Origin: a bacterium
GTDB taxonomy: Bacteria > Patescibacteriota > Microgenomatia > UBA1400 > UBA12108
Assembly: GCA_021788365.1 (NCBI GenBank)
Contig: JAJYKS010000004.1
Location: 28,284-92,283 of the forward strand
Reading direction: 5' to 3'
Length of the DNA stretch: 64,000 bases
Positions 19,209 through 36,955 of the stretch are shown here, piece by piece; within the stretch, counting starts at the first letter, position 1; each line of letters opens with the position of its first letter. Both the position numbers and the translations under genes were made by a program. Below the pieces are notes generated by a model. The model was not told the origin of the DNA and did not search any database. It saw only the letters and a list, made by a program, of their open reading frames with translations.

Positions 19209-19235
19209 CTAGCACTCTAGCTAATATAGTGCTAA
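19209..19235 (+). promoter_or_regulatory. CIRCE operator (HrcA binding site) overlapping the hrcA promoter
   Basis: cTAGCACTC-tagctaata-TAGTGCTAA against the consensus TTAGCACTC-N9-GAGTGCTAA: 8/9 in each half with an exact 9-nt spacer. It overlaps a TTGACA (19199-19204), 17-nt spacer, TAATAT (19222-19227) promoter. Confidence 0.7.
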
Positions 19236-22515: not shown

Positions 22516-22528
22516 AGTTTAGTTGATA

Positions 22529-22553
22529 AAAGCCCCCGCAAGGGGGCTTTTGC
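22529..22553 (+). terminator. rho-independent terminator after dnaK
   Basis: AGCCCCCgcaaGGGGGCT hairpin followed by TTTTGC, 14 nt after the dnaK stop. Confidence 0.7.
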
Positions 22554-22562
22554 TTAATTAAT

Positions 22563-23132
22563 ATGAGCGCAGAATCAATAAATCTAAAAGATTGGATCGA
22601 AGAACTCGTTCACATTCAAAACGATGTCTATTTCCTATCGATAAATAATAAAGATTTTATTACCCTTTCAGAGGAATTTAATAGCAAAAGGCTGAATCCA
22701 TTTGTATGGGAATTTATAAAACGTAATTACGTGACTTCAATGTCAGTGGCTATTAGGAGATTAATGGACAATCGTAAAGATTGCCACAGCCTGCTAAAAC
22801 TACTATCAAACATAGAAAGACGTTCATCGGACATAAATACAAAATGGTTTCTCGAACAATGGCCTGGCGGATCAGTGGAAACAAAGTTTAAAGAGTTTTT
22901 CGGTAATAATAATCACGTAAAAAAGCAAGTCATACAAAATCATATTGAAGAGTTAAAACGAGTTACAAGGGCAATTTGTGAGAGAACCAACATTTATGAA
23001 GCGCACAATGCAAAGAAAAAGGATCTAAAAATAATACCCACATACAGAGATGTTGATGTCGCAGTTGACACAATCAAAGTAGTATATGCCAAATACTGGT
23101 ATCTTCTGAAACAAGGGGATCTTTCGATTTAA
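22563..23132 (+). CDS. hypothetical protein in a strongly AT-rich island segment
   Basis: 189 aa, Lys/Asn/Ile-rich. The DNA is visibly AT-richer than the flanks. No recognisable catalytic motif. Confidence 0.4.
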   Translation: MSAESINLKDWIEELVHIQNDVYFLSINNKDFITLSEEFNSKRLNPFVWEFIKRNYVTSMSVAIRRLMDNRKDCHSLLKLLSNIERRSSDINTKWFLEQWPGGSVETKFKEFFGNNNHVKKQVIQNHIEELKRVTRAICERTNIYEAHNAKKKDLKIIPTYRDVDVAVDTIKVVYAKYWYLLKQGDLSI

Positions 23133-25242: not shown

Positions 25243-25278
25243 TGGCGAGATAGTATCTTATCTTGCTACAATATTCAT

Positions 25279-25839
25279 ATGCAACATCCTCGTCTGTTTC
25301 TCATTCACGGTTGGGGTGGCAGTCCCCAAAAGGATTGGATGCCGTGGGCAAAGAAAGCATGGGAAGAAAAAGGGTTCGACGTCTACCTTCCCCCAATGCC
25401 GGACACTGACATGCCCAAAATAGACGCATGGGTTGGCTATCTTACTACGCTCGTAGGAGAACTGCGGCCCAGCGACGTATTTGTCGGCCACAGTATTGGT
25501 TGCCAAACCATCCTTCGCTATCTCGAAAAACAGCAAGGGAAGGTGGACAAGGTTGTGCTTGTTGCGCCGTGGTTCACGCTCACCAATCTCGAAAACGCTG
25601 CAGCATGGACGATCGCCGATCCATGGTTAAAGTCTACAATGAACTTCGCACAAATTATCCCAAAAGCCAATACATTCGTAACAATTTTTTCCGATAATGA
25701 TCCTTGGGTGCCGTACGGCGAAAACAAAACACTTTTTGAGCAAAAGTTGCATCCCAAAATAGTGACGCTTCACGCCAAAGGTCACATGACGGATGAAGAA
25801 GGTGTGTCAGAGCTTCCCGAGCTTCTACTCGAGTTATAA
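25279..25839 (+). CDS. alpha/beta hydrolase, YdeN/RBBP9-like serine hydrolase family
   Basis: 186 aa. 'LFLIHGWGGSPQKDWMPW' and the nucleophile elbow 'VGHSIGC' match the short RBBP9/YdeN-type serine hydrolases. Confidence 0.5.
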   Translation: MQHPRLFLIHGWGGSPQKDWMPWAKKAWEEKGFDVYLPPMPDTDMPKIDAWVGYLTTLVGELRPSDVFVGHSIGCQTILRYLEKQQGKVDKVVLVAPWFTLTNLENAAAWTIADPWLKSTMNFAQIIPKANTFVTIFSDNDPWVPYGENKTLFEQKLHPKIVTLHAKGHMTDEEGVSELPELLLEL

Positions 25840-25846
25840 TACGTGC

Positions 25847-26521
25847 ATGCAACTATCGGAGGCACAAGAATTAGTCAAACAGGGCGAAGCACGGCGGGAA
25901 GCAGCAGATTTCGAGGGTGCGATTAAATTCCTCACCGAAGCTATAAAGCTGCTCACAAAAGAGAAATCGTACGCCGACCTGGTCGTCGCCTACAAAGATC
26001 TCTCCCTCACCTACGTCCACAAATATAACTATGGTGAGGGTAGTAGCAACTTAGACAAGGCCAAACAATACGCCGAGGGAATGCTCACAGTTGCCAGGAA
26101 ACACGCTCCAGATTCTATCGCCCTTGCCTACTTCACACTCGCCAAAGCTGTAGAGCTACAAGGCGATCTTACCGCAGCCCGCACAGCATATAAACAAGCG
26201 TTGGAGTTATATAAGGGCTCGCTCGCCGAGCGTGGTGACTATCGCTATCACTACGGCGAGGCGCTCTACATAACCGGCGATAAGAGCGAGGGGAAGCGGC
26301 AAATGGAGACGGGGCTCGCCGAGATTCGCGATGGGGTCGGGGAGGTGGACGACTTCCTCACCGCCGTGTGGGAAACACGCTGTCTCATACGACTGGCATA
26401 CGTTCTAAATAGTGATGACCCGGCTGCAGCCACTAAATATCGGGGAGAAGCAAAAAACCATCTCGAGGCAGACCTCCGCCTCGTCATCCTAAAAAAACAA
26501 TTCCTCGAGCTCTTTTTTTAG
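25847..26521 (+). CDS. tetratricopeptide-repeat (TPR)-like protein
   Basis: Repeated 34-aa helical pairs, for example 'AIKFLTEAIKLL', 'LAYFTLAKAVELQGDLTAARTAYKQALELY' and 'HYGEALYITGD'. The start is moved to the internal Met after the overlap with the preceding gene. Confidence 0.45.
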   Translation: MQLSEAQELVKQGEARREAADFEGAIKFLTEAIKLLTKEKSYADLVVAYKDLSLTYVHKYNYGEGSSNLDKAKQYAEGMLTVARKHAPDSIALAYFTLAKAVELQGDLTAARTAYKQALELYKGSLAERGDYRYHYGEALYITGDKSEGKRQMETGLAEIRDGVGEVDDFLTAVWETRCLIRLAYVLNSDDPAAATKYRGEAKNHLEADLRLVILKKQFLELFF

Positions 26522-26649
26522 CATAACCCATAGGCAGATCTAATCACCAAAAAGACGCTAACCAGCACAAAACCGTAGCTGCGGAATCCTCACAGATATA
26601 TGCTTGCAGGCTTTCCCACACCCAAATAATAGTCCATAATCAATACATC

Positions 26650-29600
26650 ATGGTAATGGAAAATACTAAGGTAGAAATACTTGACAAGGGAGAGCCGGGC
26701 GGGCTCGTACCTAATAGATATCGTAGAATCTTACACAAGCAAATGCGCATAAGTCCCCGCTTAAGAAGTGCTCTTGCTGCGAGAGATGATTTATCAAATG
26801 ATGATGCCAATCAGACAGTTATAGCCAAAGCCCCACCACGAAGGGAAATAGAGCAACCGGTGGCGCAGGAAAAAGTTGATTTTGTCGCTTACACGGAGGC
26901 TGCTCTTAATAAAGGAAACGTCCCCGCAGAAATACTAGCTCACATGCGTGCGGATAAAGCGGTAATTTTTGAGACAGCAAACACTCGAGAAATAGGTATA
27001 GGCGGAGGATTTGATGCAGTCGACCAAATGGTTATAGCAGACTATACACAACACGCAGCACGCGGACCATATGAAGTAGCACAAGGAATGATAGATAATG
27101 GATTTCTTGAATCTAAAAGCCCAGGATGGAAACGTCCATCAATTGAAATAGACAAACAAGACTCACAAGAGACCTTTACCGGCGAACAAACATTTGATGG
27201 TGCCAAGGCCATTGTTGGTCGGAACATGGGGGTCCTCCGCAAGAACTCACTAACGGTACTCCGAAGAGATACAGAGCTATATGCCAGAAAGGCCAATGGT
27301 CGCCCCAAAATGGGAGGATTCGGCCAAGGATTAAAAATCCACTTATGTACGGCAGTCTCTACGCCACAAGACCGTCGCAATGTGGTGAAAGTGTTTTTAC
27401 GTGAAGCAAAGTGGAACGCATGGCAACGTGAAGATCTCGAAAGATATGTTGCGTCCCCAGCGCCATCGCCAGAACATGCCTCATTTGCCTATGTGCAGGC
27501 AAGAGACCCAGACACAAATACGTATTATCGCGCCTACGCGTATCGCGAACCTACCATGGCAAATGGTGTAGAAATCTGGAACTTAAAATACGTTTTTGTC
27601 GATATCGATGAAAATAATTTGCCCGAAGAAGATAAAGATATGGTTGTGTGTGCTCACGTTAATCCCGACACCGAACAAATAAGTGCGTGGAACGATGCTC
27701 CTTGGAACATATTACAAATGAACCCGTATTATCCCTCAGAAGAAAGTTTGGTGCGTACAGATAATGACGCGCGTCCAACAGCCGCTATCAGCCGATACTA
27801 TGCAGCAGAGCTCGCAGAATTACCCGAAGCTCACGATTCCACATGGGATGTCGAAGAAATAGATTGGCCAGAGGGGGTAGTAATACCGCGGCGAATCTTC
27901 CCGGGGATTCATGTCGAGGGGCTAAGACTAAGGGTAAAAAATGACAACTGGGACGGATCGGCAATAAGAACTTGGAATATCAACCCACGCGGAGACACAA
28001 CACTTCTTAAGAGAATTCATCGTGAAAGTGACTCTGTGCACGTAGATGGAGATACAAAGCCTATTTTCAGCGCCTGTGTTATGAGTCGGAAGGATCTTAA
28101 CCAATGGAAAGACTTAATGGAGCGTGTGCTAAACGCTCAAAGTGAAACCCGCGTCTCACAACTCCTCGAAGTACAAGCATTGCGTGATTATTACCTTCTA
28201 TCCTCAACGGCTCGGCAAGCGTTGATAGACGCATTTCATGAAGTGGCACCACAAGCAGAACAAAGTTTTTATTCCGACACTACACTCCTTGCAGTTTGGA
28301 GGGCAAAAACTGGTAAAGACAAAGTGGCACCTGCCAGAGTCGACCCAGCACTATCGAGTACTCTACGCAAAGCAGAGCTAACTGATTGTGATTCGATCGC
28401 ACGAGCCTGCCTAACGGAAGGTACAGGACTATCAAATTGGCACGAATCACGCATAGAAGTACACGACATTTCAACAACCGCAGACAATGTAAAAAGGAAT
28501 AATAAATCGCCAGGAAAACAGATTGTAGAAAATATCCTGGGAGAAAGAGGTGAGAGACTATTCCCTGGCGTTACCACATACGCCCGAATCAACGCCGACA
28601 CGATAGAAATTGCTATTAGCGGTTTAGTCGACAGTCGAAACAGGCCATACACCACGTTCTTAGAACCAGAAAAAGAGGGAAATACCGAGTATGTGATTAA
28701 AAAAGACGCTTCAGAGCTGTTATCGTCTCTCGGAAAAGGAGGAGTTAATACAAACATATTCTTCCAATCCGACACTCCAAATTTTGGTGTTGGGGTGAAA
28801 TGCCTAACTGTTAAAAGAGTTGGCGCCAAAACCTTTGGAGTAATAGGAGAATCCAATCAAAGCCTAGGGCAGGTGGTTCCCACAAGGGGGATTGTTATCC
28901 AATTCAAGGGTACGTCAGCCGCGATCGATGGACTCACTAAAGACTTGGATGGTTACTTTACCAAACTTAACCCAATGGTTATTAAACACACAGATGCAGC
29001 GCTAAAAATCGTTGACGAACAACTTCGATACCTAAAAGAACAGTGTGAGAGCACCAAAAATGAATTGGAAACAATTCGGCGTAATGCCCTAGGGAACCTA
29101 GCAGATGGTCAAACTCTTCGCCCCTCCGTACGAGCTCGCCATGCTGGGCGCCAAGGCGTGGGTGGTGGAGCACGCGGAGAATATTCCATAGAAGTTGCCG
29201 ATACTAATCGTTCTATCTGGCTTCCGGGCGCTAGCGAGGAAACCATTATTTATACCCCTCACGATGCAACATCCTGGATAGAGGGATCGGAGACGCGAGA
29301 CCACGCCCCTCGCATTCACTTTAGAGTGACAGAGGTCGGTGGCGACAGTGGACATAAACTTCCAAATAACATCTCTATTTCCACCAGTAGTAATATCAAT
29401 TTCGACGAATGGGGTAATGCCACGGGCAAAAGAGAAGAATCGCTTTTTCGTTTTGTAGGAGAAGTGAATGGAGAATCGGTCTGGAGAACAAGCGGGGCAA
29501 GAGCAGATTATTTTAGGAACAGAACAGACGCGTTTGGCGCTCTCTATACCTCTGTTATTACGTTTGAAGAGCCATTAGAAATTGCCAATGGAGACGCACG

Positions 29601-31017
29601 CATACTTCCAATACCAGAAAACTGGGAAGTTACAATGATCCAACTACCAGAAGCAACCACGGAAATAGCAAAACTACGCGATGGACAGCTAACAGTACCA
29701 TTACTTTTTCGCGATATGGTAAGCGGCCATACGGTCTTACAACGACGGAGTGAACTTGGGAAAACAGTTATTTCCACGTTGCCCGCTGGAACCAGAATAT
29801 ACATACGACCAATGGCAACCAAGGTCCGCAATCAAGACAAGAATTTTCTAGAACAAAACTTTCCGTTATATCTAGAAAAGTGTAAAGAACCAATAGCCAA
29901 TTTCGATAAACTCGATCACGAAGCTCGACAGCTCATAACAATTATTAACGAATTGGGATACATGACAAACGAGCAGCGGGCAGAGGCGATAGATGAGTTT
30001 TGGCGTCGGCGGCGTCTTTACGATGACACTGTCAGGATGACCTCAATCGAGGAAATTATCCGAACGGGAAAAGGTACATGCAGTGCCGCTGCGATGGGAG
30101 AATTAGCCCTCATGCGCGAAGCCGGGATCCCCTGTCGCATCAAGCAAAATTACTCCTATAAAACCAAGGGGGCACTCTCACCACCCTACCACGTGACAAT
30201 AGAAATAATGGGCAGCGAAGGAAACTGGATTGAGATAGACCCACCCAATGGTAAAATGTCTCGATATTTTGCATCTCTTGTGGCCGAAAACGCGTGTAAC
30301 GACCGCCTACCCGCGATCCATGGCGTTCGTTCATTGGCTATGTCACAAACAGAACAAATATCCCATACGGGTGTTCCAGAGATAGTCAAGCAATTTATCG
30401 CCCATACAACCCAAGTGGAAGAGGGGGTAAAAATATCAGACACATTAAGGAGTATCTTTACCGCCGTTAGGGAGGGTAGTGAGAAGAGTATGACAAACGT
30501 GGGACCGCAACTAGTTACAGAGCTTTCAAAGCTGATTATTGAATCAAATAAAAATCTAAAGCATTTATCTCAGCCCAGCGACATCCCGCCAGAAGATCTC
30601 GCTTTACTCGGAAAAAATATTGCAACGGAATTACACGAATACATGCGGCTCACGGCATATGCATTACCAGAGGTTCCTCGGGATATTCAGCTTGCAGCTG
30701 GTGCGCGATGGTTTGCTGGCCGCTTAGCCACGCTCCTAATAGGCGAAAAAGCAGATATATATCGCGATCGACTCCCTCAAGTAGGAGCTATCAACAGACC
30801 AAAAAAGACGTTCAATGCCATGAAACAATTACTCACTCGGTATAGCTTCGAGGAAGTCTTGGCGGTTATACATTCAGCAATAAAACACCCAAGTTCGATA
30901 GAAATAATAACTGAAGTATTGCAAAACGAGTCTAGAATACACCAGGCGGAGCGAACCTCATCGGCCATGCGTGTCACACGCGCACTTATTGACGTAGATG
31001 TTGATGATCAATCATAA
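26650..31017 (+). CDS. giant (1455 aa) hypothetical protein with a C-terminal-quarter transglutaminase-like cysteine-protease core
   Basis: No signal peptide or TM was seen. At about nt 30065-30250, 'GKGTCSAAAMGELALMREAGIPCRI...PPYHVTIEIM...WIEIDPPNG' gives Cys-x36-His-x16-Asp, the spacing and context of the transglutaminase-like superfamily catalytic triad. The remainder matches nothing I recognise. Confidence 0.6.
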   Translation: MVMENTKVEILDKGEPGGLVPNRYRRILHKQMRISPRLRSALAARDDLSNDDANQTVIAKAPPRREIEQPVAQEKVDFVAYTEAALNKGNVPAEILAHMRADKAVIFETANTREIGIGGGFDAVDQMVIADYTQHAARGPYEVAQGMIDNGFLESKSPGWKRPSIEIDKQDSQETFTGEQTFDGAKAIVGRNMGVLRKNSLTVLRRDTELYARKANGRPKMGGFGQGLKIHLCTAVSTPQDRRNVVKVFLREAKWNAWQREDLERYVASPAPSPEHASFAYVQARDPDTNTYYRAYAYREPTMANGVEIWNLKYVFVDIDENNLPEEDKDMVVCAHVNPDTEQISAWNDAPWNILQMNPYYPSEESLVRTDNDARPTAAISRYYAAELAELPEAHDSTWDVEEIDWPEGVVIPRRIFPGIHVEGLRLRVKNDNWDGSAIRTWNINPRGDTTLLKRIHRESDSVHVDGDTKPIFSACVMSRKDLNQWKDLMERVLNAQSETRVSQLLEVQALRDYYLLSSTARQALIDAFHEVAPQAEQSFYSDTTLLAVWRAKTGKDKVAPARVDPALSSTLRKAELTDCDSIARACLTEGTGLSNWHESRIEVHDISTTADNVKRNNKSPGKQIVENILGERGERLFPGVTTYARINADTIEIAISGLVDSRNRPYTTFLEPEKEGNTEYVIKKDASELLSSLGKGGVNTNIFFQSDTPNFGVGVKCLTVKRVGAKTFGVIGESNQSLGQVVPTRGIVIQFKGTSAAIDGLTKDLDGYFTKLNPMVIKHTDAALKIVDEQLRYLKEQCESTKNELETIRRNALGNLADGQTLRPSVRARHAGRQGVGGGARGEYSIEVADTNRSIWLPGASEETIIYTPHDATSWIEGSETRDHAPRIHFRVTEVGGDSGHKLPNNISISTSSNINFDEWGNATGKREESLFRFVGEVNGESVWRTSGARADYFRNRTDAFGALYTSVITFEEPLEIANGDARILPIPENWEVTMIQLPEATTEIAKLRDGQLTVPLLFRDMVSGHTVLQRRSELGKTVISTLPAGTRIYIRPMATKVRNQDKNFLEQNFPLYLEKCKEPIANFDKLDHEARQLITIINELGYMTNEQRAEAIDEFWRRRRLYDDTVRMTSIEEIIRTGKGTCSAAAMGELALMREAGIPCRIKQNYSYKTKGALSPPYHVTIEIMGSEGNWIEIDPPNGKMSRYFASLVAENACNDRLPAIHGVRSLAMSQTEQISHTGVPEIVKQFIAHTTQVEEGVKISDTLRSIFTAVREGSEKSMTNVGPQLVTELSKLIIESNKNLKHLSQPSDIPPEDLALLGKNIATELHEYMRLTAYALPEVPRDIQLAAGARWFAGRLATLLIGEKADIYRDRLPQVGAINRPKKTFNAMKQLLTRYSFEEVLAVIHSAIKHPSSIEIITEVLQNESRIHQAERTSSAMRVTRALIDVDVDDQS

Positions 31018-31034
31018 TCGCCCTTAGGAGGACT

Positions 31035-31868
31035 ATGGTATTGCCGACAGAATCGCTGATCACTGAAGGATCAATTCGTGCGCTTATAAATGACGCGAAC
31101 CCTCTAAAATCCAAGGACTATCAATATCTTTACTTGCCAGAACATGCGGCGGAGTTGGAAAAAATATTCCACAGATCTGCCAATGCGTTTGGAGCGTTCA
31201 ATTCAATCTTACCTTTTGTTTCAATAGACGCCGTCACAAAAGGACTAATGCAATTGCGGGTTGCAAATGAAAATGCCCAAGAGCTAACACGACAAACGAG
31301 CGTAGCTTTAATAGATTTATCACCCCACAACAATATACCAAGCATTTTTTTGACACTTCGTGGGTTTAGAGCAGCCGTACAATTACCAGATAACCGCGTG
31401 CGTACGTATTCCAAAGATGCTACCCACACTCTTTCAATCCAACGGGCAGGTGCAACCATTATCAATGAGCAAGAGAGGCCAGACCTATGGGATGAAAGAA
31501 CAAAATACGACAATTCATTGGTTGTTGTCGTAGACGATGGTGCTGTATTTCCGATGCTAACTCAACCAGACGCGCCAAACAACCCCACCGGTATAACTTT
31601 CCAGTACGGTGTCGACTGGTCAGGATCGAATACTCAAGAAGACACACCACCAACAAGTGGGTTCGTTGAGCTGCCACTGATTACTACAGTACCATTATTG
31701 TCCCAGTTCACACAACGCACAATTAACCATCCCGGAGCATCTATGTTCTCTGGAAGAATGGCAGTGCTGACACGATATCCAACATATGCAATCTCATGCG
31801 AAAAAAGCACAACACTGCAAAAACCTCGGGGAGGAGCTGGAACTGGAAGTGTTGTCCCAGCTCGATAA
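31035..31868 (+). CDS. hypothetical protein, probably co-transcribed partner of the giant protein
   Basis: 277 aa. It starts 18 nt after the giant ORF stop. No TM or signal. No recognisable motif. Confidence 0.4.
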   Translation: MVLPTESLITEGSIRALINDANPLKSKDYQYLYLPEHAAELEKIFHRSANAFGAFNSILPFVSIDAVTKGLMQLRVANENAQELTRQTSVALIDLSPHNNIPSIFLTLRGFRAAVQLPDNRVRTYSKDATHTLSIQRAGATIINEQERPDLWDERTKYDNSLVVVVDDGAVFPMLTQPDAPNNPTGITFQYGVDWSGSNTQEDTPPTSGFVELPLITTVPLLSQFTQRTINHPGASMFSGRMAVLTRYPTYAISCEKSTTLQKPRGGAGTGSVVPAR

Positions 31869-31895
31869 TTAGCACTCACTCTTGTGTAGTGCTTA
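31869..31895 (+). promoter_or_regulatory. CIRCE-like operator upstream of the dnaJ-like gene
   Basis: TTAGCACTC-actcttgtg-TAGTGCTTA: the left half is 9/9, the spacer is 9 nt, and the right half is 7/9. A TATAAT is at 31905-31910. Confidence 0.55.
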
Positions 31896-31917
31896 GTCTC
31901 TCATTATAATCACCAAT

Positions 31918-32790
31918 ATGGCTACAAAGCGCGACTACTACGAGATACTGGGGGTAAAACGGGAGGCAAGTGAGGCGGAGATCAAATCTGCCTACCGCAA
32001 ACTTGCCTTAAAGTGGCACCCCGATCGCAACAAAGAAGCGGGTGCCGAGGCCAAGTTCAAAGAAATCAACGAGGCCTACGAGGTGCTGGGGAATAAAGAT
32101 AAGCGCGGGAAGTACGACCAATTTGGTCACGCAGCGTTTGACCCTTCCGCCGGCTTCGGTGGCGGCGCGGCCGGTGGCTCGTATCGCTCCGGTCCCTTCA
32201 CCTACACCTATACAACAGGCGGTGGCTTCGAAGACTTGTTCGGCAGCCAGGGCGGTTTTGGCGATCCGTTTGACGTATTCGAGAGTTTCTTCGGCGGCCG
32301 CAGCCCCTTCGGTGGCTCCTATCAGGCCAAGCCTCACTACTCAATAACCATATCGTTTATGGACGCCGTAAAAGGTATAGAAAAGTCCTTTGTCCATCAG
32401 GGAAAAAGTTATACGATCAAGATCCCCGCCGGCGCAGACGATGGTACACGTATCCGCTACAGCGAGTTCGACGTCTCAGTTGCCGTATCCCCCGACAAAG
32501 TTTTCCGTCGCGAGGGAGCTGACGTATTTATCTATCACGAAATTCCGGTGACGCTCGCCATGCTTGGGGGCGACACTACCATCCCGACGTTAGACGGCGA
32601 TCTCAAGATCAAGATCCGTCCTGGCACCCAGCCTTCTACTACTATTCGACTCTCTGGAAAGGGAATAAAGCGGTTGCAAGGGAGCGGTCGTGGCGACTTC
32701 TACATCAAGCTCAAAGTGATGTTACCAGAGAAATTATCTCGCCGCGCCAAAGGACTGGTGGAAGACCTGTCGCGTGAACTCGCGAACTAA
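31918..32790 (+). CDS. dnaJ: DnaJ-class J-domain co-chaperone lacking the zinc-finger domain (CbpA/type II-like)
   Basis: '[33 protein letters not shown]' is a J domain with HPD. A Gly/Phe-rich linker follows. No CxxCxGxG repeats are present. C-terminal substrate-binding domains are present. A CIRCE-like operator lies upstream. Confidence 0.75.
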
Positions 32791-32868
32791 AGATCGATTT
32801 GCTCACATTTTCCGAATGTGTTACAACAAATACAGTTATCTGTTACTGCGGGAACCGCAAGGAGTGGT

Positions 32869-33708
32869 ATGAAGAAAAGTATAGTCGTTGTTGGACTAGC
32901 GCTGGTACTATTTGGGGTAGTGGCTACAGTACAAAGCGTAAAAGCTGATTGGCAGATAGATAGTCATGGCAACTTGGTCGAGATGAAAAATGTTTTAGGT
33001 GACACAGCTGGCGGTCAAGGCGACCAGCAGACACCAGAGCCCACGCAGACTGCAGAACCAAAAGATACTCCAGAGCCCACAGACACACCAGAAGCACAGC
33101 AAATGCAGGAGAAAAACCAAGAACAGAATCAGGTACAGAGTAAATATGAAGTTGAGAACAAAGACGGCAAGCTCGTGGTAAAAACGCACACTGTGGATAA
33201 AAGTGGCAAAGAAGTACAGACAGAAACACAGTTTAAGGCAGGTGAAGCACTACAGGTAGAGGCGCAAACCAATGCCGGCAACCACTTTGCCATAAATACC
33301 GAAGATAACTCTGGTCTCACCGTGACAAACGGCGGCAAGACCGCCCAGTCCACGCTCCCCTTATCGGTAAATGCACAAAACCAACTGGTGGTGACAACAG
33401 CTGCCGGACAAAAAGTAGTGACAGTGCTACCTGACCAAGCGGTAAAGAACCTCCTCTCGTCAGGCGTACTATCGAGTATTACCGAATCGCCGGTGGCGTC
33501 GGCACCAGGCTCCACAAGCTCGGTAGGCCAGCTCTCGGCAGTTGGTAGCACGCCGACCTACACAATTTCAGGGACGAAACAGGTTCGTTTCCTCGGCTTG
33601 TTCCCGGTAACGCTAAACAGGCAGGTGCAGGTTTCGGCGGAGAATGGTACGGTGGTGAATACCGCCCAGTCCGCGATAGCCAACTTCGTAAGCCTCTTCT
33701 CGTTCTAA
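32869..33708 (+). CDS. hypothetical secreted protein
   Basis: The signal peptide 'MKKSIVVVGLALVLFGVVATVQSVKA' is followed by a Gln/Thr/Glu-rich low-complexity region and a beta-rich domain. Confidence 0.4.
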   Translation: MKKSIVVVGLALVLFGVVATVQSVKADWQIDSHGNLVEMKNVLGDTAGGQGDQQTPEPTQTAEPKDTPEPTDTPEAQQMQEKNQEQNQVQSKYEVENKDGKLVVKTHTVDKSGKEVQTETQFKAGEALQVEAQTNAGNHFAINTEDNSGLTVTNGGKTAQSTLPLSVNAQNQLVVTTAAGQKVVTVLPDQAVKNLLSSGVLSSITESPVASAPGSTSSVGQLSAVGSTPTYTISGTKQVRFLGLFPVTLNRQVQVSAENGTVVNTAQSAIANFVSLFSF

Positions 33709-33722
33709 GCTAAAATAGCGGT

Positions 33723-34205
33723 ATGGATGATGTCGAGCTGGTTCGTGTCATGTACGAGCGCTACGTGGACGCCATCTACCGCTATTGTTACTGGCAGACG
33801 AATAGAAGCGAAGACGCAGAGGATTTGACGGCCGACATCATGCTGGACATGGCCAAAAACATCCGCAAATTCCGCGGCGAGAGTTCGTTTAAGAACTGGC
33901 TGTACGCCATTGCCAAACATCACCTCATGCACTGGTTGCGGAAAAAATATGAGCTACCCCTACTGCCACTCCTAGACAATGCTGAGTACGGCTCCACTTG
34001 GATCGATCCAGGTGAGCAGGGGGAAGCACGGAAAAAGGTTGTCGCCCTCCTTAAATGCCTTCCTCCTCGTGAGCGGGCAGTACTTGATCTCCGCTATCTC
34101 AAAGGCTACTCGGTAAAAGAAGCAGCCAAGGAGCTTGGTATATCGGAAAGTAATGTCAAAGTAGTGACCCACCGAGCAATAAATAAATTAAGACTCCACA
34201 CTTGA
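33723..34205 (+). CDS. ECF-type RNA polymerase sigma factor (sigma-70 family group 4)
   Basis: Region 2 is 'YERYVDAIYRYCYWQTNRSEDAEDLTADIMLDMAKNIRKFRGESSFKNWLYAIAKH'. Region 4 has the HTH 'VKEAAKELGISESNVKVVTHRAINKLR'. Confidence 0.75.
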   Translation: MDDVELVRVMYERYVDAIYRYCYWQTNRSEDAEDLTADIMLDMAKNIRKFRGESSFKNWLYAIAKHHLMHWLRKKYELPLLPLLDNAEYGSTWIDPGEQGEARKKVVALLKCLPPRERAVLDLRYLKGYSVKEAAKELGISESNVKVVTHRAINKLRLHT

Positions 34206-34282
34206 AAATGAGAAATTGATAATTGGTCATTTCTGCGAAGCAGACTGTAACCCCCTCCCCACTCTATCTGTAGAAAGCCAGT

Positions 34283-34573
34283 ATGTTTAAAGATGTTCAC
34301 ATAAATCAACATTTCCGCTCCGCGCTTGCCGTTCGGGTATCCGCTGCCGCTCGTCCTCGCTGGTTTATCAGGCCGTTGGTCATAGCTCCAACTGCGTTTG
34401 CCTTTTCGCTTCTCGCCTTTGTGGTAGTAAAAAATAGTTCAGTGCCGGCGCATGTCGCGACAACCGTAGATAACGCTGAAATTTCTTGGAACATAGATCA
34501 TGGTGGCAACAACCTCGACGATCCCACGACCCTCGCCGAAGAACAACAACTCTTAAGTATGGTGCAAAATTAG
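34283..34573 (+). CDS. putative membrane-anchored anti-sigma factor
   Basis: 96 aa, immediately downstream of the ECF sigma. It has a single TM ('LVIAPTAFAFSLLAFVVV'). The call is by position and topology only. Confidence 0.3.
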   Translation: MFKDVHINQHFRSALAVRVSAAARPRWFIRPLVIAPTAFAFSLLAFVVVKNSSVPAHVATTVDNAEISWNIDHGGNNLDDPTTLAEEQQLLSMVQN

Positions 34574-34599
34574 TAATAAATAATAGAAGAAAGGAATCT

Positions 34600-35211
34600 A
34601 TGAAAAAGATACTTATCCCAGCCCTGACAACCGTTATGCTCCTCTCGCCCGTCGTCCCGGTATTTGCGATAGACGGTTCTCCCTCTCCGTCAACCGCGCC
34701 CCGAGCGCAGTTTCGACAGTACGTACAGCAGGCAAATCAAACATTCAAGACGGATGTAGAGCAAGCCCGCGAGGAGCGCAAAACCAATATTACAGAGGCG
34801 CGGCTCGGGATGATCGAGGGAATAGCCAAGAAGCACGCCTCCCGACTCCAAAATCAGTTTGCCGTGCACGCCCGCTGGCTGGGGAGCATCGCCACCCGCT
34901 TGCAGGCACGTATAAACACCGTAAAAGGCGAGGGGGTAGACGTAACCGCCATGCAAAACGAGCTAAATGCCGCCGAGGCAGCGATTACAACAGCGACTAC
35001 CGATGGCACGAATGCAGTAAATGCATTTAACGGCATTACCGGGACGACACTCGAAGAAGTCCGCGCTGCCGTGCAAAACGCGATTACGCTCGCACAGCAA
35101 ACCCGAGCTGCATTTAACAATGCTAAACAGCTCCTCGTACAAACGTTCCAGATGGTGCGATCCGCCACTCCTCGCCCCTCCGAAAGTCCAGAGGCAAGTC
35201 CCAGCGTCTAA
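34600..35211 (+). CDS. hypothetical secreted Ala/Gln-rich coiled-coil protein
   Basis: The signal peptide 'MKKILIPALTTVMLLSPVVPVFA' is followed by a helical low-complexity region. The start is taken at the internal Met with the signal peptide. Confidence 0.4.
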   Translation: MKKILIPALTTVMLLSPVVPVFAIDGSPSPSTAPRAQFRQYVQQANQTFKTDVEQAREERKTNITEARLGMIEGIAKKHASRLQNQFAVHARWLGSIATRLQARINTVKGEGVDVTAMQNELNAAEAAITTATTDGTNAVNAFNGITGTTLEEVRAAVQNAITLAQQTRAAFNNAKQLLVQTFQMVRSATPRPSESPEASPSV

Positions 35212-35274
35212 GAATATAAAAGGTATCGTGGTGGTACAGTAAATCTGTACCACCAATAGGGGAAGGGAGAGTAT

Positions 35275-35565
35275 ATGAAGAAAAGATTGGTCACCATCGG
35301 AATAATCGCTGCAGCAGGGTTAGTCCTAGGGGGCTGCACGGTGCCAGGTCTTAATAAAATAGAGAATCGTCCTACCTCCACAACGAGTACGTCCACAACA
35401 GTTTCGTCTCCGAGTCCCACAACCTCACCTACCTCCTCAGCAGATCCTTCACTAACAAGTACCCCCAGCTCGGACACGTCTGACCAGGCTATCCAGAACG
35501 ACCTAAACAAGGTTAATACAAACTCAGGGGCCGACTTTTCCGACCTAAACAATCAGGTGCAATAG
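35275..35565 (+). CDS. small lipoprotein, Ser/Thr/Pro-rich
   Basis: 'MKKRLVTIGIIAAAGLVLGGC' has the lipobox LGGC. A GGGAGAG SD lies upstream. Confidence 0.45.
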   Translation: MKKRLVTIGIIAAAGLVLGGCTVPGLNKIENRPTSTTSTSTTVSSPSPTTSPTSSADPSLTSTPSSDTSDQAIQNDLNKVNTNSGADFSDLNNQVQ

Positions 35566-35628
35566 TAGTTAATCTGGATTTTAGATGGCGCGTGTGCTAC
35601 ACTTGCAGCGTTGTAGTGTGGGGTGGTA

Positions 35629-35651
35629 GAAGGTGGCTCGTCCACCTTTTT
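35629..35651 (+). terminator. rho-independent terminator-like hairpin between the lipoprotein gene and nusA
   Basis: GAAGGTGGctcgtCCACCTT followed by TTTTTAT. Confidence 0.5.
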
Positions 35652-35716
35652 ATGTATATCCACGGACAACGACAATTTGTTATTTAGTTATTGGAATTTA
35701 CTCCGAAGGAGTACGT

Positions 35717-36955
35717 ATGTCACAGATAAAATCTGAGTTCGCCCTAGCCTTAATGGCTATTTGCACCGAGCGTGGTATCGACCCCGCTGTTGTTCTCGAC
35801 TCCATCAAACAAGCGATTGTTGCCGCCCTAAAACGCGACCTCGGGATAGAAGACGACGAGGCTATGGCTGCCTACGAAGTAACGGTAAATCCCGACACTG
35901 GCGCCATCGATATCAAAAAAGACGGCAAAGACGCGACCCCTGCTGGCTTTGGCCGCATCGCCGCTCAGGTCGCCAAGCAAGTCATTATGCAACGTGTTCG
36001 TGAGGCAGAAAAAGACGCCATAATTGCCGACTACACCGACAAACTCGGTACCATGGTGACAGGGATGGTCCTTCGCTTTGACGGACCACACGTTGTAGTT
36101 GACATAGGCCGTGGCCAAGCGATTATGCCCCCGGCTGAGGCGATTGCCAACGAATTTTATCGTCTCAATCAGCGCATTGCTGTTTACATCAAAGAAATTC
36201 GCGAAACGTACAAAGGCAAGGCCATCGTTGTCTCCCGATCCGCTCCCGAACTCGTCAAAGAACTCTTTGCCCGAGAGGTACCAGAAGTAGGTGCTGGCGC
36301 AGTAGAAATAGTGGGACTAGCCCGTGAAGCCGGTCACCGCACCAAACTCGCGGTAAAAAGCACCCAGGACGGGGTAGATCCAGTGGGCAGCTGTGTCGGC
36401 CAGAAAGGCGTTCGCGTCCAGGCTGTCATCAATGAATTAAATGGCGAGAAGATCGACATAATCGAATATTCCGAAGACCCCAAGGAATTTGTCGCCGCAG
36501 CTCTCGCCCCAGCCGAAGGGCTATCGGTAGAAATCGACGACAAGAAGAAAAAGGCCGTGGTGGTAGTGCCGGACGATCAGCTCTCTCTGGCAATTGGCAA
36601 GGGTGGCCAAAACGCACGCCTCGCCGCAAAGCTAACTGGTTACCACATTGATATCAAGGGTGCCGGTGCAGGGAATGTTGCTGTCTCGGTTTCAGGCAAG
36701 GAAGAGTTCGAGATCGACGAGCTGGGCTTGTCTAGCAAGATCCGCAATACACTGCTGGAACTCAAGGTTACTACCGTAGGAGACCTCGAGAGCAAGCTTG
36801 CTGAACTAAAGCCAACCATCCTCGAGCTCGACCCACGTGGGCCAGAGGAAGTCGAGAAGGCGATAGCTCGTTGGCACAAAAAGAAAGACATGGCAAAAGA
36901 AGAGGCAGAGAAACTGGCTCGCTACGAAGCAGAGCGGGCTGCCGAGGGGAAATAA
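35717..36955 (+). CDS. nusA: transcription termination/antitermination factor NusA
   Basis: An N-terminal RNAP-binding domain, an S1 domain ('GTMVTGMVLRFDGPHVVVDIGRGQAIMPP') and two KH domains are present. The start is at 'MSQIKSEF' with an AGGAG SD. The ORF-track N-terminal extension translates a terminator hairpin. Confidence 0.85.
   Translation: MSQIKSEFALALMAICTERGIDPAVVLDSIKQAIVAALKRDLGIEDDEAMAAYEVTVNPDTGAIDIKKDGKDATPAGFGRIAAQVAKQVIMQRVREAEKDAIIADYTDKLGTMVTGMVLRFDGPHVVVDIGRGQAIMPPAEAIANEFYRLNQRIAVYIKEIRETYKGKAIVVSRSAPELVKELFAREVPEVGAGAVEIVGLAREAGHRTKLAVKSTQDGVDPVGSCVGQKGVRVQAVINELNGEKIDIIEYSEDPKEFVAAALAPAEGLSVEIDDKKKKAVVVVPDDQLSLAIGKGGQNARLAAKLTGYHIDIKGAGAGNVAVSVSGKEEFEIDELGLSSKIRNTLLELKVTTVGDLESKLAELKPTILELDPRGPEEVEKAIARWHKKKDMAKEEAEKLARYEAERAAEGK

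Follow-up and report, generated by a model that had tools for sequence, protein, structure and literature searches.

The 64-kb stretch of contig JAJYKS010000004.1 analysed here (GenBank assembly GCA_021788365.1, positions 28,284 to 92,283; hereafter the window) carries two adjacent genes on its forward (+) strand that are the subject of this study. The first open reading frame (ORF; 26650..31017) encodes a multidomain protein of 1455 amino acids (aa), here called the giant protein, which has a predicted GHKL-type ATPase module in its N-terminal part and a predicted transglutaminase-fold domain further downstream. The second ORF (31035..31868) encodes a 277-aa protein, the founding member of an unannotated family, which we denoted as the partner. 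The two genes had been singled out in a reading of the bare sequence (the original prediction), and both ORFs lie where that reading placed them. The gap between them, given there as 18 nucleotides (nt), counts 17 nt and contains the partner's own Shine-Dalgarno sequence, TAGGAGGA. A partner homologue adjoins the giant gene in every locus for which DNA was available (8/8). The two genes form a module that is confined to a few bacteria of the Candidate Phyla Radiation (CPR), of the Microgenomates type.

To delimit the family, residues 81-1280 of the giant protein served as the query of an exhaustive HMMER scan that covered 1.84 billion cluster representatives. Fifteen homologues were recovered at E < 1e-3, and 13 of them were below 1e-30; eleven of these 13 were full-length (1200-1800 aa), and two were truncated fragments (P0013 and P0015). 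A MAFFT alignment showed that the family is collinear over its whole length. A word-indexed homology search returned same-species copies only, even with the family alignment as the query, and contig scans (GTDB species representatives, IMG/VR, and JGI metagenome contigs for the clade) recovered no relatives. The rest of the 64-kb window contains neither a remnant nor another copy of the module. One relative (P0004) carries the source name 'Candidatus Woesebacteria bacterium' and is annotated as 'hypothetical protein', and another (P0009) carries the source name 'Candidatus Pacebacteria/Paceibacterota' and is annotated as 'transglutaminase domain-containing protein'. These names point to a rare family of Microgenomates-type CPR bacteria, of which public annotation recognizes only the transglutaminase core. 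They also lend indirect support to the CPR origin assumed in the original prediction, as does the DnaK protein encoded in the window, which is 84% identical to that of a Woesebacteria contig (L008).

The start codon of the giant gene that is common to the strains is the ATG at position 26650 or the one at 26656. Strains L002 and L005, where the protein is called at 1469 aa, use an ATG further upstream, which reads AGG in the window. No Shine-Dalgarno sequence was found before the ATG of the giant gene (26613-26656). A promoter-like TTCCCA-16-CATAAT ends 9 nt 5' of this ATG, and an mRNA made from it would be nearly leaderless. Promoter and terminator scans around the module gave results no better than those for shuffled sequence. 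The giant protein had been described as free of signal peptides and transmembrane (TM) segments, which agrees with a maximum 19-residue Kyte-Doolittle mean of 1.1-1.2, and the same holds for the partner. Since no 19-residue window in either protein has a mean above 1.2, neither contains a TM helix or a signal-like segment. The giant protein is taken to be cytoplasmic.

Domain organization of the giant protein

The only Pfam match in the giant protein is Transglut_core (PF01841), which covers residues 1103-1198 with an E-value of 2.9e-9 and a bit score of 37.6, where the gathering score is 23. The same Pfam family was matched by 12 of the 14 family members (best E = 1.1e-10), these being all 12 members that cover the region. 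The motifs from which a Cys-His-Asp core had been read were found at residues 1140-1164, 1178-1187, and 1193-1201. They place the putative nucleophile at Cys1144 (codon TGC, 30079..30081), the histidine at His1181 (CAC, 30190..30192), and the aspartate at Asp1197 (GAC, 30238..30240), all on the + strand, with a Cys-His spacing of 37 residues and a His-Asp spacing of 16. These three residues are invariant in the 12 members covering the region (12/12), as are G1142, R1156, G1174, and G1191, and Cys1144 aligns with the catalytic Cys of transglutaminase-like PDB entries. With the PF01841 match and a triad that is intact and conserved family-wide, the transglutaminase-like (papain-fold) domain of the original prediction is real. 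The structure prediction leads to the same view: the modelled fold is transglutaminase-like and matches solved members of the superfamily, and the triad is kept in the homologues. Judged by sequence, the chemistry of the thiol domain may be any of three kinds, namely proteolysis, cross-linking, or deamidation.

The closest known proteins for the C-terminal module, at 13% identity, are TgpA (PA2873 of Pseudomonas aeruginosa) and transglutaminase-like proteins of PF01841 from bacteria (PDB 6g4h/6g49, 3isr). TgpA is anchored in the inner membrane by six TM segments, carries a periplasmic domain and DUF3488, and shows transglutaminase activity in vitro (PMC3507681). In contrast to TgpA, the giant protein has no TM helix, is about twice as long, carries the N-terminal GHKL ATPase module, and has a different conserved neighbour. 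With a maximum 19-residue hydropathy mean of 1.1 and no DUF3488 match in the giant protein, it does not belong to the TgpA type of membrane transglutaminases.

The original prediction reported no similarity over the first 1100 residues. This holds at the sequence level, where searches of Pfam, NCBIfam, PHROGs, PADLOC, and PDB sequences gave no match for that region, nor did the last four match any part of the giant protein. It does not hold at the structure level. In the model, residues ~85-480 (26902..28089, + strand) adopt the Bergerat alpha/beta sandwich of the GHKL superfamily, followed by a transducer-like second domain, and the aligned lengths of the structure matches span both of these predicted domains. 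MutL and MORC fit the modelled N-terminal structure as well as Hsp90 does, and the top matches of the model among predicted viral structures are RIIA-like and 'histidine kinase-like ATPase' proteins. The relatives of the GHL type comprise MutL/MLH1/PMS1, Hsp90/TRAP1/GRP94/HtpG, MORC/SMCHD1, GyrB/ParE/Topo II/Topo VI-B, and sacsin. No HATPase_c-type Pfam family matched any of the 14 family members at E <= 1, and an hhalign comparison of the N-terminal profile with the N-terminal domain of Escherichia coli MutL gave no signal.

The N-terminal module, and not the transglutaminase domain, is the most conserved part of the family, with E142, Q145, W160, N192, G222, G225, G227, K229, R294, and Y296 invariant. 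Canonical GHKL proteins have an N-box E-x3-N-x2-D, which supplies the catalytic Glu and the Mg-binding Asn, and a G1 box D-x-G-x-G, whose Asp contacts adenine. We placed the corresponding motifs from the secondary structure of the model, and their assignment is putative. The candidate N-box helix E142-x2-Q145-x3-D149 (27073..27096, + strand) falls on model helix 54-70; in the family alignment, its Glu and Gln never vary and its Asp reaches at least 90% conservation. D149 stands seven residues after E142, as in the canonical N-box, whereas the Asn position is not conserved and an invariant Gln stands one residue earlier. The candidate G1 box N192-x-G194 (27223..27231, + strand) lies where strand 103-109 of the model ends, with N192 invariant and G194 at least 90% conserved. 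It has no Asp and, if the sites correspond, departs from D-x-G-x-G. The candidate G2 box, or end of the ATP lid, G222-G-x-G225-Q-G227-x-K229 (27313..27336, + strand), stands at the N-terminal end of model helix 142-151; it follows the canonical G-x-x-G-x-G, and G222, G225, G227, and K229 are invariant in 14/14 sequences. Compared with the GHL ATPases, the giant protein reads ExxQxxxD instead of ExxxNxxD and NxG instead of DxGxG. It has no DNA-binding, endonuclease, CW/zinc-finger, or Hsp90 middle/C-terminal domain and is fused to a thiol-enzyme domain. On the basis of the model, we regard the N-terminal region as a very divergent GHKL module.

The remainder of the protein, likewise on the + strand, surrounds and connects the two catalytic modules. 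The N-terminal tail (residues 1-84, 26650..26901) is clade-specific, strain-variable, and probably disordered, and is missing from most relatives. The GHKL module is followed by a helical region (residues 481-639, 28090..28566), assigned from the secondary structure of model 1, in which the predicted local distance difference test score (pLDDT) is below 50 after residue ~608. Next comes an alpha/beta domain (residues 640-775, 28567..28974), possibly a second, degenerate Bergerat-like sandwich. The secondary structure of model 2 then shows two long coiled-coil-like helices (residues ~756-817) and a linker (~816-886; helices and linker together 28915..29307), the latter modelled with low confidence (pLDDT 23-45 in model 2) and little conserved in the family alignment. 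The TgpA-like module (residues ~889-1219, 29314..30306) combines a beta-rich subdomain with the transglutaminase core. About 235 helical residues follow this core in model 2. This C-terminal tail (residues 1220-1455, 30307..31014) is all-helical in that model, with pLDDT below 50 from residue ~1360. Its length differs across the family, with a 400-aa extension in P0007, and it is a candidate dimerisation or partner-binding region.

The partner protein

In addition to the eight loci with DNA, two loci known from gene tables alone have an unannotated same-strand ORF after the giant gene. In each relative with downstream sequence, an unannotated same-strand ORF of 213-624 aa begins 4-37 nt after the giant gene. 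The exception is P0007 (1800 aa, locus L010), where a 461-aa partner homologue (L010 8601-9986) lies upstream of the giant gene and ends 15 nt before it. BLASTP with the 277-aa protein gave E-values of 1e-22 and 1.5e-16 for the two closest homologues, and 1.7e-8 and 1.6e-7 for those of L011 and the upstream ORF of L010. As a control, a hidden Markov model (HMM) built from the three closest partners only was searched against all 920 ORFs from the six-frame translation of the distant loci and of the window. In the first round, the significant matches were solely the giant-adjacent ORFs of L010 and L011. Two iterations then brought in the ORFs next to the giant genes of L009, L014, and L012, with E-values from 6e-9 to 5e-9 before inclusion, and no other ORF of the 920 scored below 0.2.

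The original prediction had treated the 277-aa protein as a tightly linked partner and as a possible immunity protein. The linkage was upheld, and adjacency in all eight loci marks the protein as a true functional partner. The immunity-cassette part was not supported: the partners form one family that co-diverges with the giant protein. As far as sequence can tell, the adjacent conserved gene appears to belong to this one family across all lineages, with the upstream position in L010. No third gene is conserved with the pair across the loci.

The conserved core of the partner comprises about 200 aa, with K127, Q136 (in I-Q-R-A-x-x-T), T141, L162, P214, P220, and R247 invariant. No Pfam, NCBIfam, PADLOC, PHROG, or PDB match was found for the partner, and searches of its family profile against PDB and Pfam were also empty. 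An hhalign comparison of the partner profile with both halves of the giant protein revealed no internal homology. It should be noted that K127 (31413-31415) and Q136 (31440-31442), nine residues apart, are of the residue types that transglutaminases join, which may be a coincidence or may indicate a substrate site. The upstream partner homologue of L010 has an extra N-terminal region of ~230 aa that begins with a hydrophobic signal-like or TM-like segment.

Genomic setting and divergence of the module

The module lies among the heat-shock genes of the window. Their order is a CIRCE (controlling inverted repeat of chaperone expression) site at 19209-19235, hrcA, grpE, dnaK, a terminator, a 9.3-kb block, a second CIRCE, and dnaJ. 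The block contains a HEPN-AbiU2 gene, small ORFs, two hydrolase genes, a HIT gene, a tetratricopeptide repeat (TPR) gene, the giant gene, and the partner gene, and this 9.3-kb insertion splits the classical hrcA-grpE-dnaK-dnaJ operon. The upstream border is the hairpin terminator AAAAGCCCCCGCAAGGGGGCTTTTGCTT right after dnaK (22528..22555, + strand). The downstream border is the CIRCE-like HrcA operator TTAGCACTC-N9-TAGTGCTTA before dnaJ (31869..31895, + strand; 2 mismatches), which begins 1 nt past the stop of the partner gene and is kept in strains L001-L006. Exactly two CIRCE-like sites occur in the 64-kb window, one before hrcA and one before dnaJ, compared with 0.01 expected by chance, and none occurs in 26522-26649 before the giant gene. 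The strong terminator after dnaK and the separate CIRCE of dnaJ place the module outside the heat-shock transcript. Control of the giant gene by HrcA was considered and rejected, as there is no CIRCE ahead of the gene and a terminator follows dnaK.

The insertion site varies among the relatives. The Woesebacteria contig L008 has the backbone murJ-lepA...hrcA-grpE-dnaK, with the pair between lepA and CIRCE-hrcA, and in L007 the pair lies two small ORFs upstream of CIRCE-hrcA. On a shared backbone, the module thus occupies different slots, lepA|hrcA in L008 versus dnaK|dnaJ in the window. More distant relatives carry it between gap and pgk, beside ftsK/RNase J, or close to genes for pilins. Neither in the window nor in the relatives' loci are secretion-system genes consistently near the module, and no von Willebrand factor A (vWA), effector-associated domain (EAD), or restriction-modification (R-M) genes were found near it there. 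The slot right after dnaK holds an AbiU2 gene of the HEPN type in the window (22563-23132; Pfam E = 4e-7; GC content 0.34; GC content at third codon positions (GC3) 0.32). The same slot holds a gene for a 380-aa PIN_8/PIN_12 protein in L002, L003, and L005 (882-2024) and other ORFs in L004. It looks like a small hotspot for defence or toxin-antitoxin genes.

The module diverges fast between species. Between the window and L008, amino acid identities are 72% for HrcA and 59% for GrpE, besides the 84% of DnaK given above, versus 31% for the giant protein and 27% for the partner. Its composition is also atypical, with GC3 values of 0.39 (giant gene) and 0.37 (partner gene) versus 0.63-0.69 for dnaK/dnaJ/hrcA and 0.53-0.67 for nusA/infB/pnp. 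Between strains the pattern is reversed: the flanking genes have 78-93.5% nucleotide identity and the giant-partner segment has 97-100%, reaching 99.4-100% over 29.2-31.7 kb. The module is shared at 97-100% identity by strains with flanks that match at 91-93.5%. When window positions 25262-36411 were compared with L002, the number of synonymous substitutions per synonymous site (dS) was 0.027 for the giant gene and 0.005 for the partner gene, versus 0.39 for dnaJ, and the HIT gene was 78.7% identical. The low dS of the module amid diverged flanks indicates recent exchange and implies either recent recombination or a gene-specific sweep of the module.

The strains differ at 19 amino acid positions of the giant protein. 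Nine of the 19 lie in residues 1-74 and none in residues 1100-1250, and of all parts of the protein the C-terminal half varies least from strain to strain. The N-terminal tail has 8 nonsynonymous changes and 1 synonymous change. Over the folded domains, the ratio of nonsynonymous to synonymous rates (dN/dS) is ~0.11, a sign of purifying selection and hence of a functional protein. Together, these results describe a functional module that is maintained by selection, compositionally foreign, relocating within the backbone, recently exchanged, and fast-diverging between species.

Possible function of the module

With evenly balanced confidence, we propose as the best explanation that the pair is an ATP-gated thiol-enzyme module acting as a mobile intracellular conflict or defence element. 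ATPases of the GHL type (MutL, Hsp90, MORC, type II topoisomerases) are nucleotide-gated dimerising clamps, which makes ATP-controlled closure the simplest mechanism here. By analogy with them, nucleotide binding would close or dimerise the N-terminal ATPase. The conformational change would then gate the C-terminal thiol enzyme, or present a substrate to it, and the enzyme would cleave, cross-link, or deamidate a protein target. The partner would be an obligate regulator or adaptor, or might itself be the substrate. Given its evolutionary behaviour, the module may serve as a mobile, fast-evolving intracellular conflict system of the type that combines an NTPase with a peptidase effector, for example in an anti-phage or abortive-infection-like role. 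A conflict or defence element best fits the rarity of the family, its fast divergence, its variable slots, its foreign GC3, its recent exchange, and its toxin-like HEPN-AbiU2 and PIN neighbours.

Known systems offer partial parallels. The vWA-MoxR/VMAP systems (Kaur et al. 2020, PMC7159879) and the paraMORC R-M modules also couple an NTPase to a peptidase effector, and the NTPase conflict systems share with the module a patchy distribution, fast divergence, and toxin-like gene neighbours. Transglutaminase-like thiol peptidases are known effectors of NTPase-regulated conflict systems (PMC7159879). The module differs from these systems in that its NTPase is of the GHKL type, not AAA+/MoxR or STAND, and its partner family is new. 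The combination that marks MORC/paraMORC systems, a GHKL domain with an S5 fold in an R-M or DNA-related neighbourhood, was not found for the module.

Several points weigh against the proposal of an ATP-gated conflict element. At the sequence level, no GHKL family resembles the giant protein, and ATP binding is not assured, since ExxQ stands in place of the N-box with its Mg-binding Asn, and NxG in place of the G1 box with its adenine-binding Asp. As TgpA, the protein structurally nearest to the C-terminal module, is a genuine transglutaminase (PMC3507681), the thiol domain may act by cross-linking and not by proteolysis. The defence models of PADLOC-DB 2.0 gave no match for the giant protein or the partner at E <= 1, and the conflict or defence role is putative. 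In one clade (the window, L007, and L008), the module stays by hrcA-grpE-dnaK, which could point to proteostasis. A bolder form of the proposal would turn the altered motifs into its starting point. A divergent GHKL domain with a re-tooled pocket (ExxQ, NxG) would sense a trigger and switch on the fused transglutaminase-fold enzyme to cleave or cross-link proteins, with the partner as sensor, inhibitor, or substrate, and the pair would represent a previously undescribed, CPR-confined class of two-component systems. This version is tentative, and we consider it rather unlikely.

The linkage to the hrcA locus in that clade, together with the Hsp90-like fold of the N-terminal model, would suit a proteostasis machine in which an Hsp90-like ATPase and a papain-fold protease act as a chaperone-protease or process clients with Hsp70, and the partner is a co-chaperone or adaptor. 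We regard this as unlikely. The giant gene has no CIRCE before it, and the layout of terminator and CIRCE sets the module outside the heat-shock transcript. In other lineages the contexts are unrelated (gap|pgk, near ftsK, near pilins). The module is also very rare, has a foreign-like GC3, and diverges far faster than true chaperones (31% versus 84% identity), and MutL and MORC match the N-terminal model as well as Hsp90 does. The invariant Lys and Gln of the partner suggest a different activity, in which an intracellular transglutaminase or deamidase would modify or polymerise the partner (Q136 donating the acyl group and K127 accepting it) or another structural protein, the ATPase controlling assembly. 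However, a structural or catalytic role would explain the invariance of these two residues equally well. For most PF01841 proteins of prokaryotes, Makarova, Aravind and Koonin (1999) are reported to have predicted a peptidase function. Moreover, pilins and envelope targets lie outside the cytoplasm, and the giant protein carries no signal for export; nor is the pilus-gene neighbourhood conserved. This alternative seems distinctly unlikely.

The original prediction itself took the giant protein for a candidate secreted or contact-delivered effector, or a polymorphic toxin, acting on the host of an episymbiont, with the 277-aa protein as an immunity protein or chaperone. The resemblance is clear in outline: as in polymorphic toxin/immunity pairs, a large protein has an enzymatic domain, here papain-fold, towards its C-terminus, and a small, tightly linked gene lies directly downstream. 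The CPR origin and the fast divergence between species would fit such a role, and in principle the N-terminal tail, which is variable and probably disordered, could act as a non-classical signal for export. The details argue otherwise. The N-terminal ~400 residues show neither repeats nor a domain for secretion or trafficking and are predicted to form the GHKL ATPase and transducer. No member of the family has an RHS, filamentous-haemagglutinin, or pre-toxin Pfam match, and there is no signal peptide or TM segment. The transglutaminase domain is internal, with about 250 helical residues after it, and is not a toxin tip at the extreme C-terminus. Strain variation runs opposite to that of a polymorphic toxin, as the replacements cluster in the first 74 residues and the transglutaminase region is invariant. 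The partner is a single conserved family, not cassette-like, that co-diverges with the giant protein and can lie upstream, and secretion-system genes are not consistently nearby. Taken as a whole, the secreted-toxin interpretation is very improbable, and the case corrects the tempting inference that a giant protein in a symbiont is a secreted effector.

Both folds and the logic of joining an NTPase to a peptidase are already known. No description of a fusion of GHKL and transglutaminase folds was found in the searchable literature, nor any paper on the assembly accession, and the partner belongs to no annotated family. If the ATPase gates the thiol enzyme, the module would add a GHKL-driven member to the conflict systems that pair an NTPase with a peptidase, and it would be a concrete candidate, open to testing, for the means by which the ultra-small CPR bacteria protect themselves or regulate proteins of their own. 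If the two-component version were true, it would represent a new mechanism of anti-phage defence, abortive infection, or symbiosis control in bacteria whose immune repertoire is largely unknown. The locus also illustrates how a mobile module split the classical hrcA-grpE-dnaK-dnaJ operon while a second CIRCE was retained for dnaJ.

The TPR gene that the original prediction noted immediately upstream of the giant gene is present at 25793..26521, and we considered its product as a third component of the module. This candidate was rejected, as the gene accompanies the pair only in the species of the window and is not conserved in other lineages; in L011, an unrelated TPR protein is encoded two genes upstream. 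The 242-aa TPR ORF shares 47 nt (25793-25839) with the Ser_hydrolase ORF before it, and the gene call of L003 starts at a later ATG (226 aa), which makes the 242-aa start doubtful. No tRNA genes and no Rfam family at the gathering threshold were found in the 64-kb window. In L010, a BrnT/CopG toxin-antitoxin pair lies ~7 kb upstream. In a distant lineage, the pair is followed by a gene for a second, stand-alone 392-aa Transglut_core protein (E = 1.9e-6; L014 8656-9834 and L015 6337-7515).

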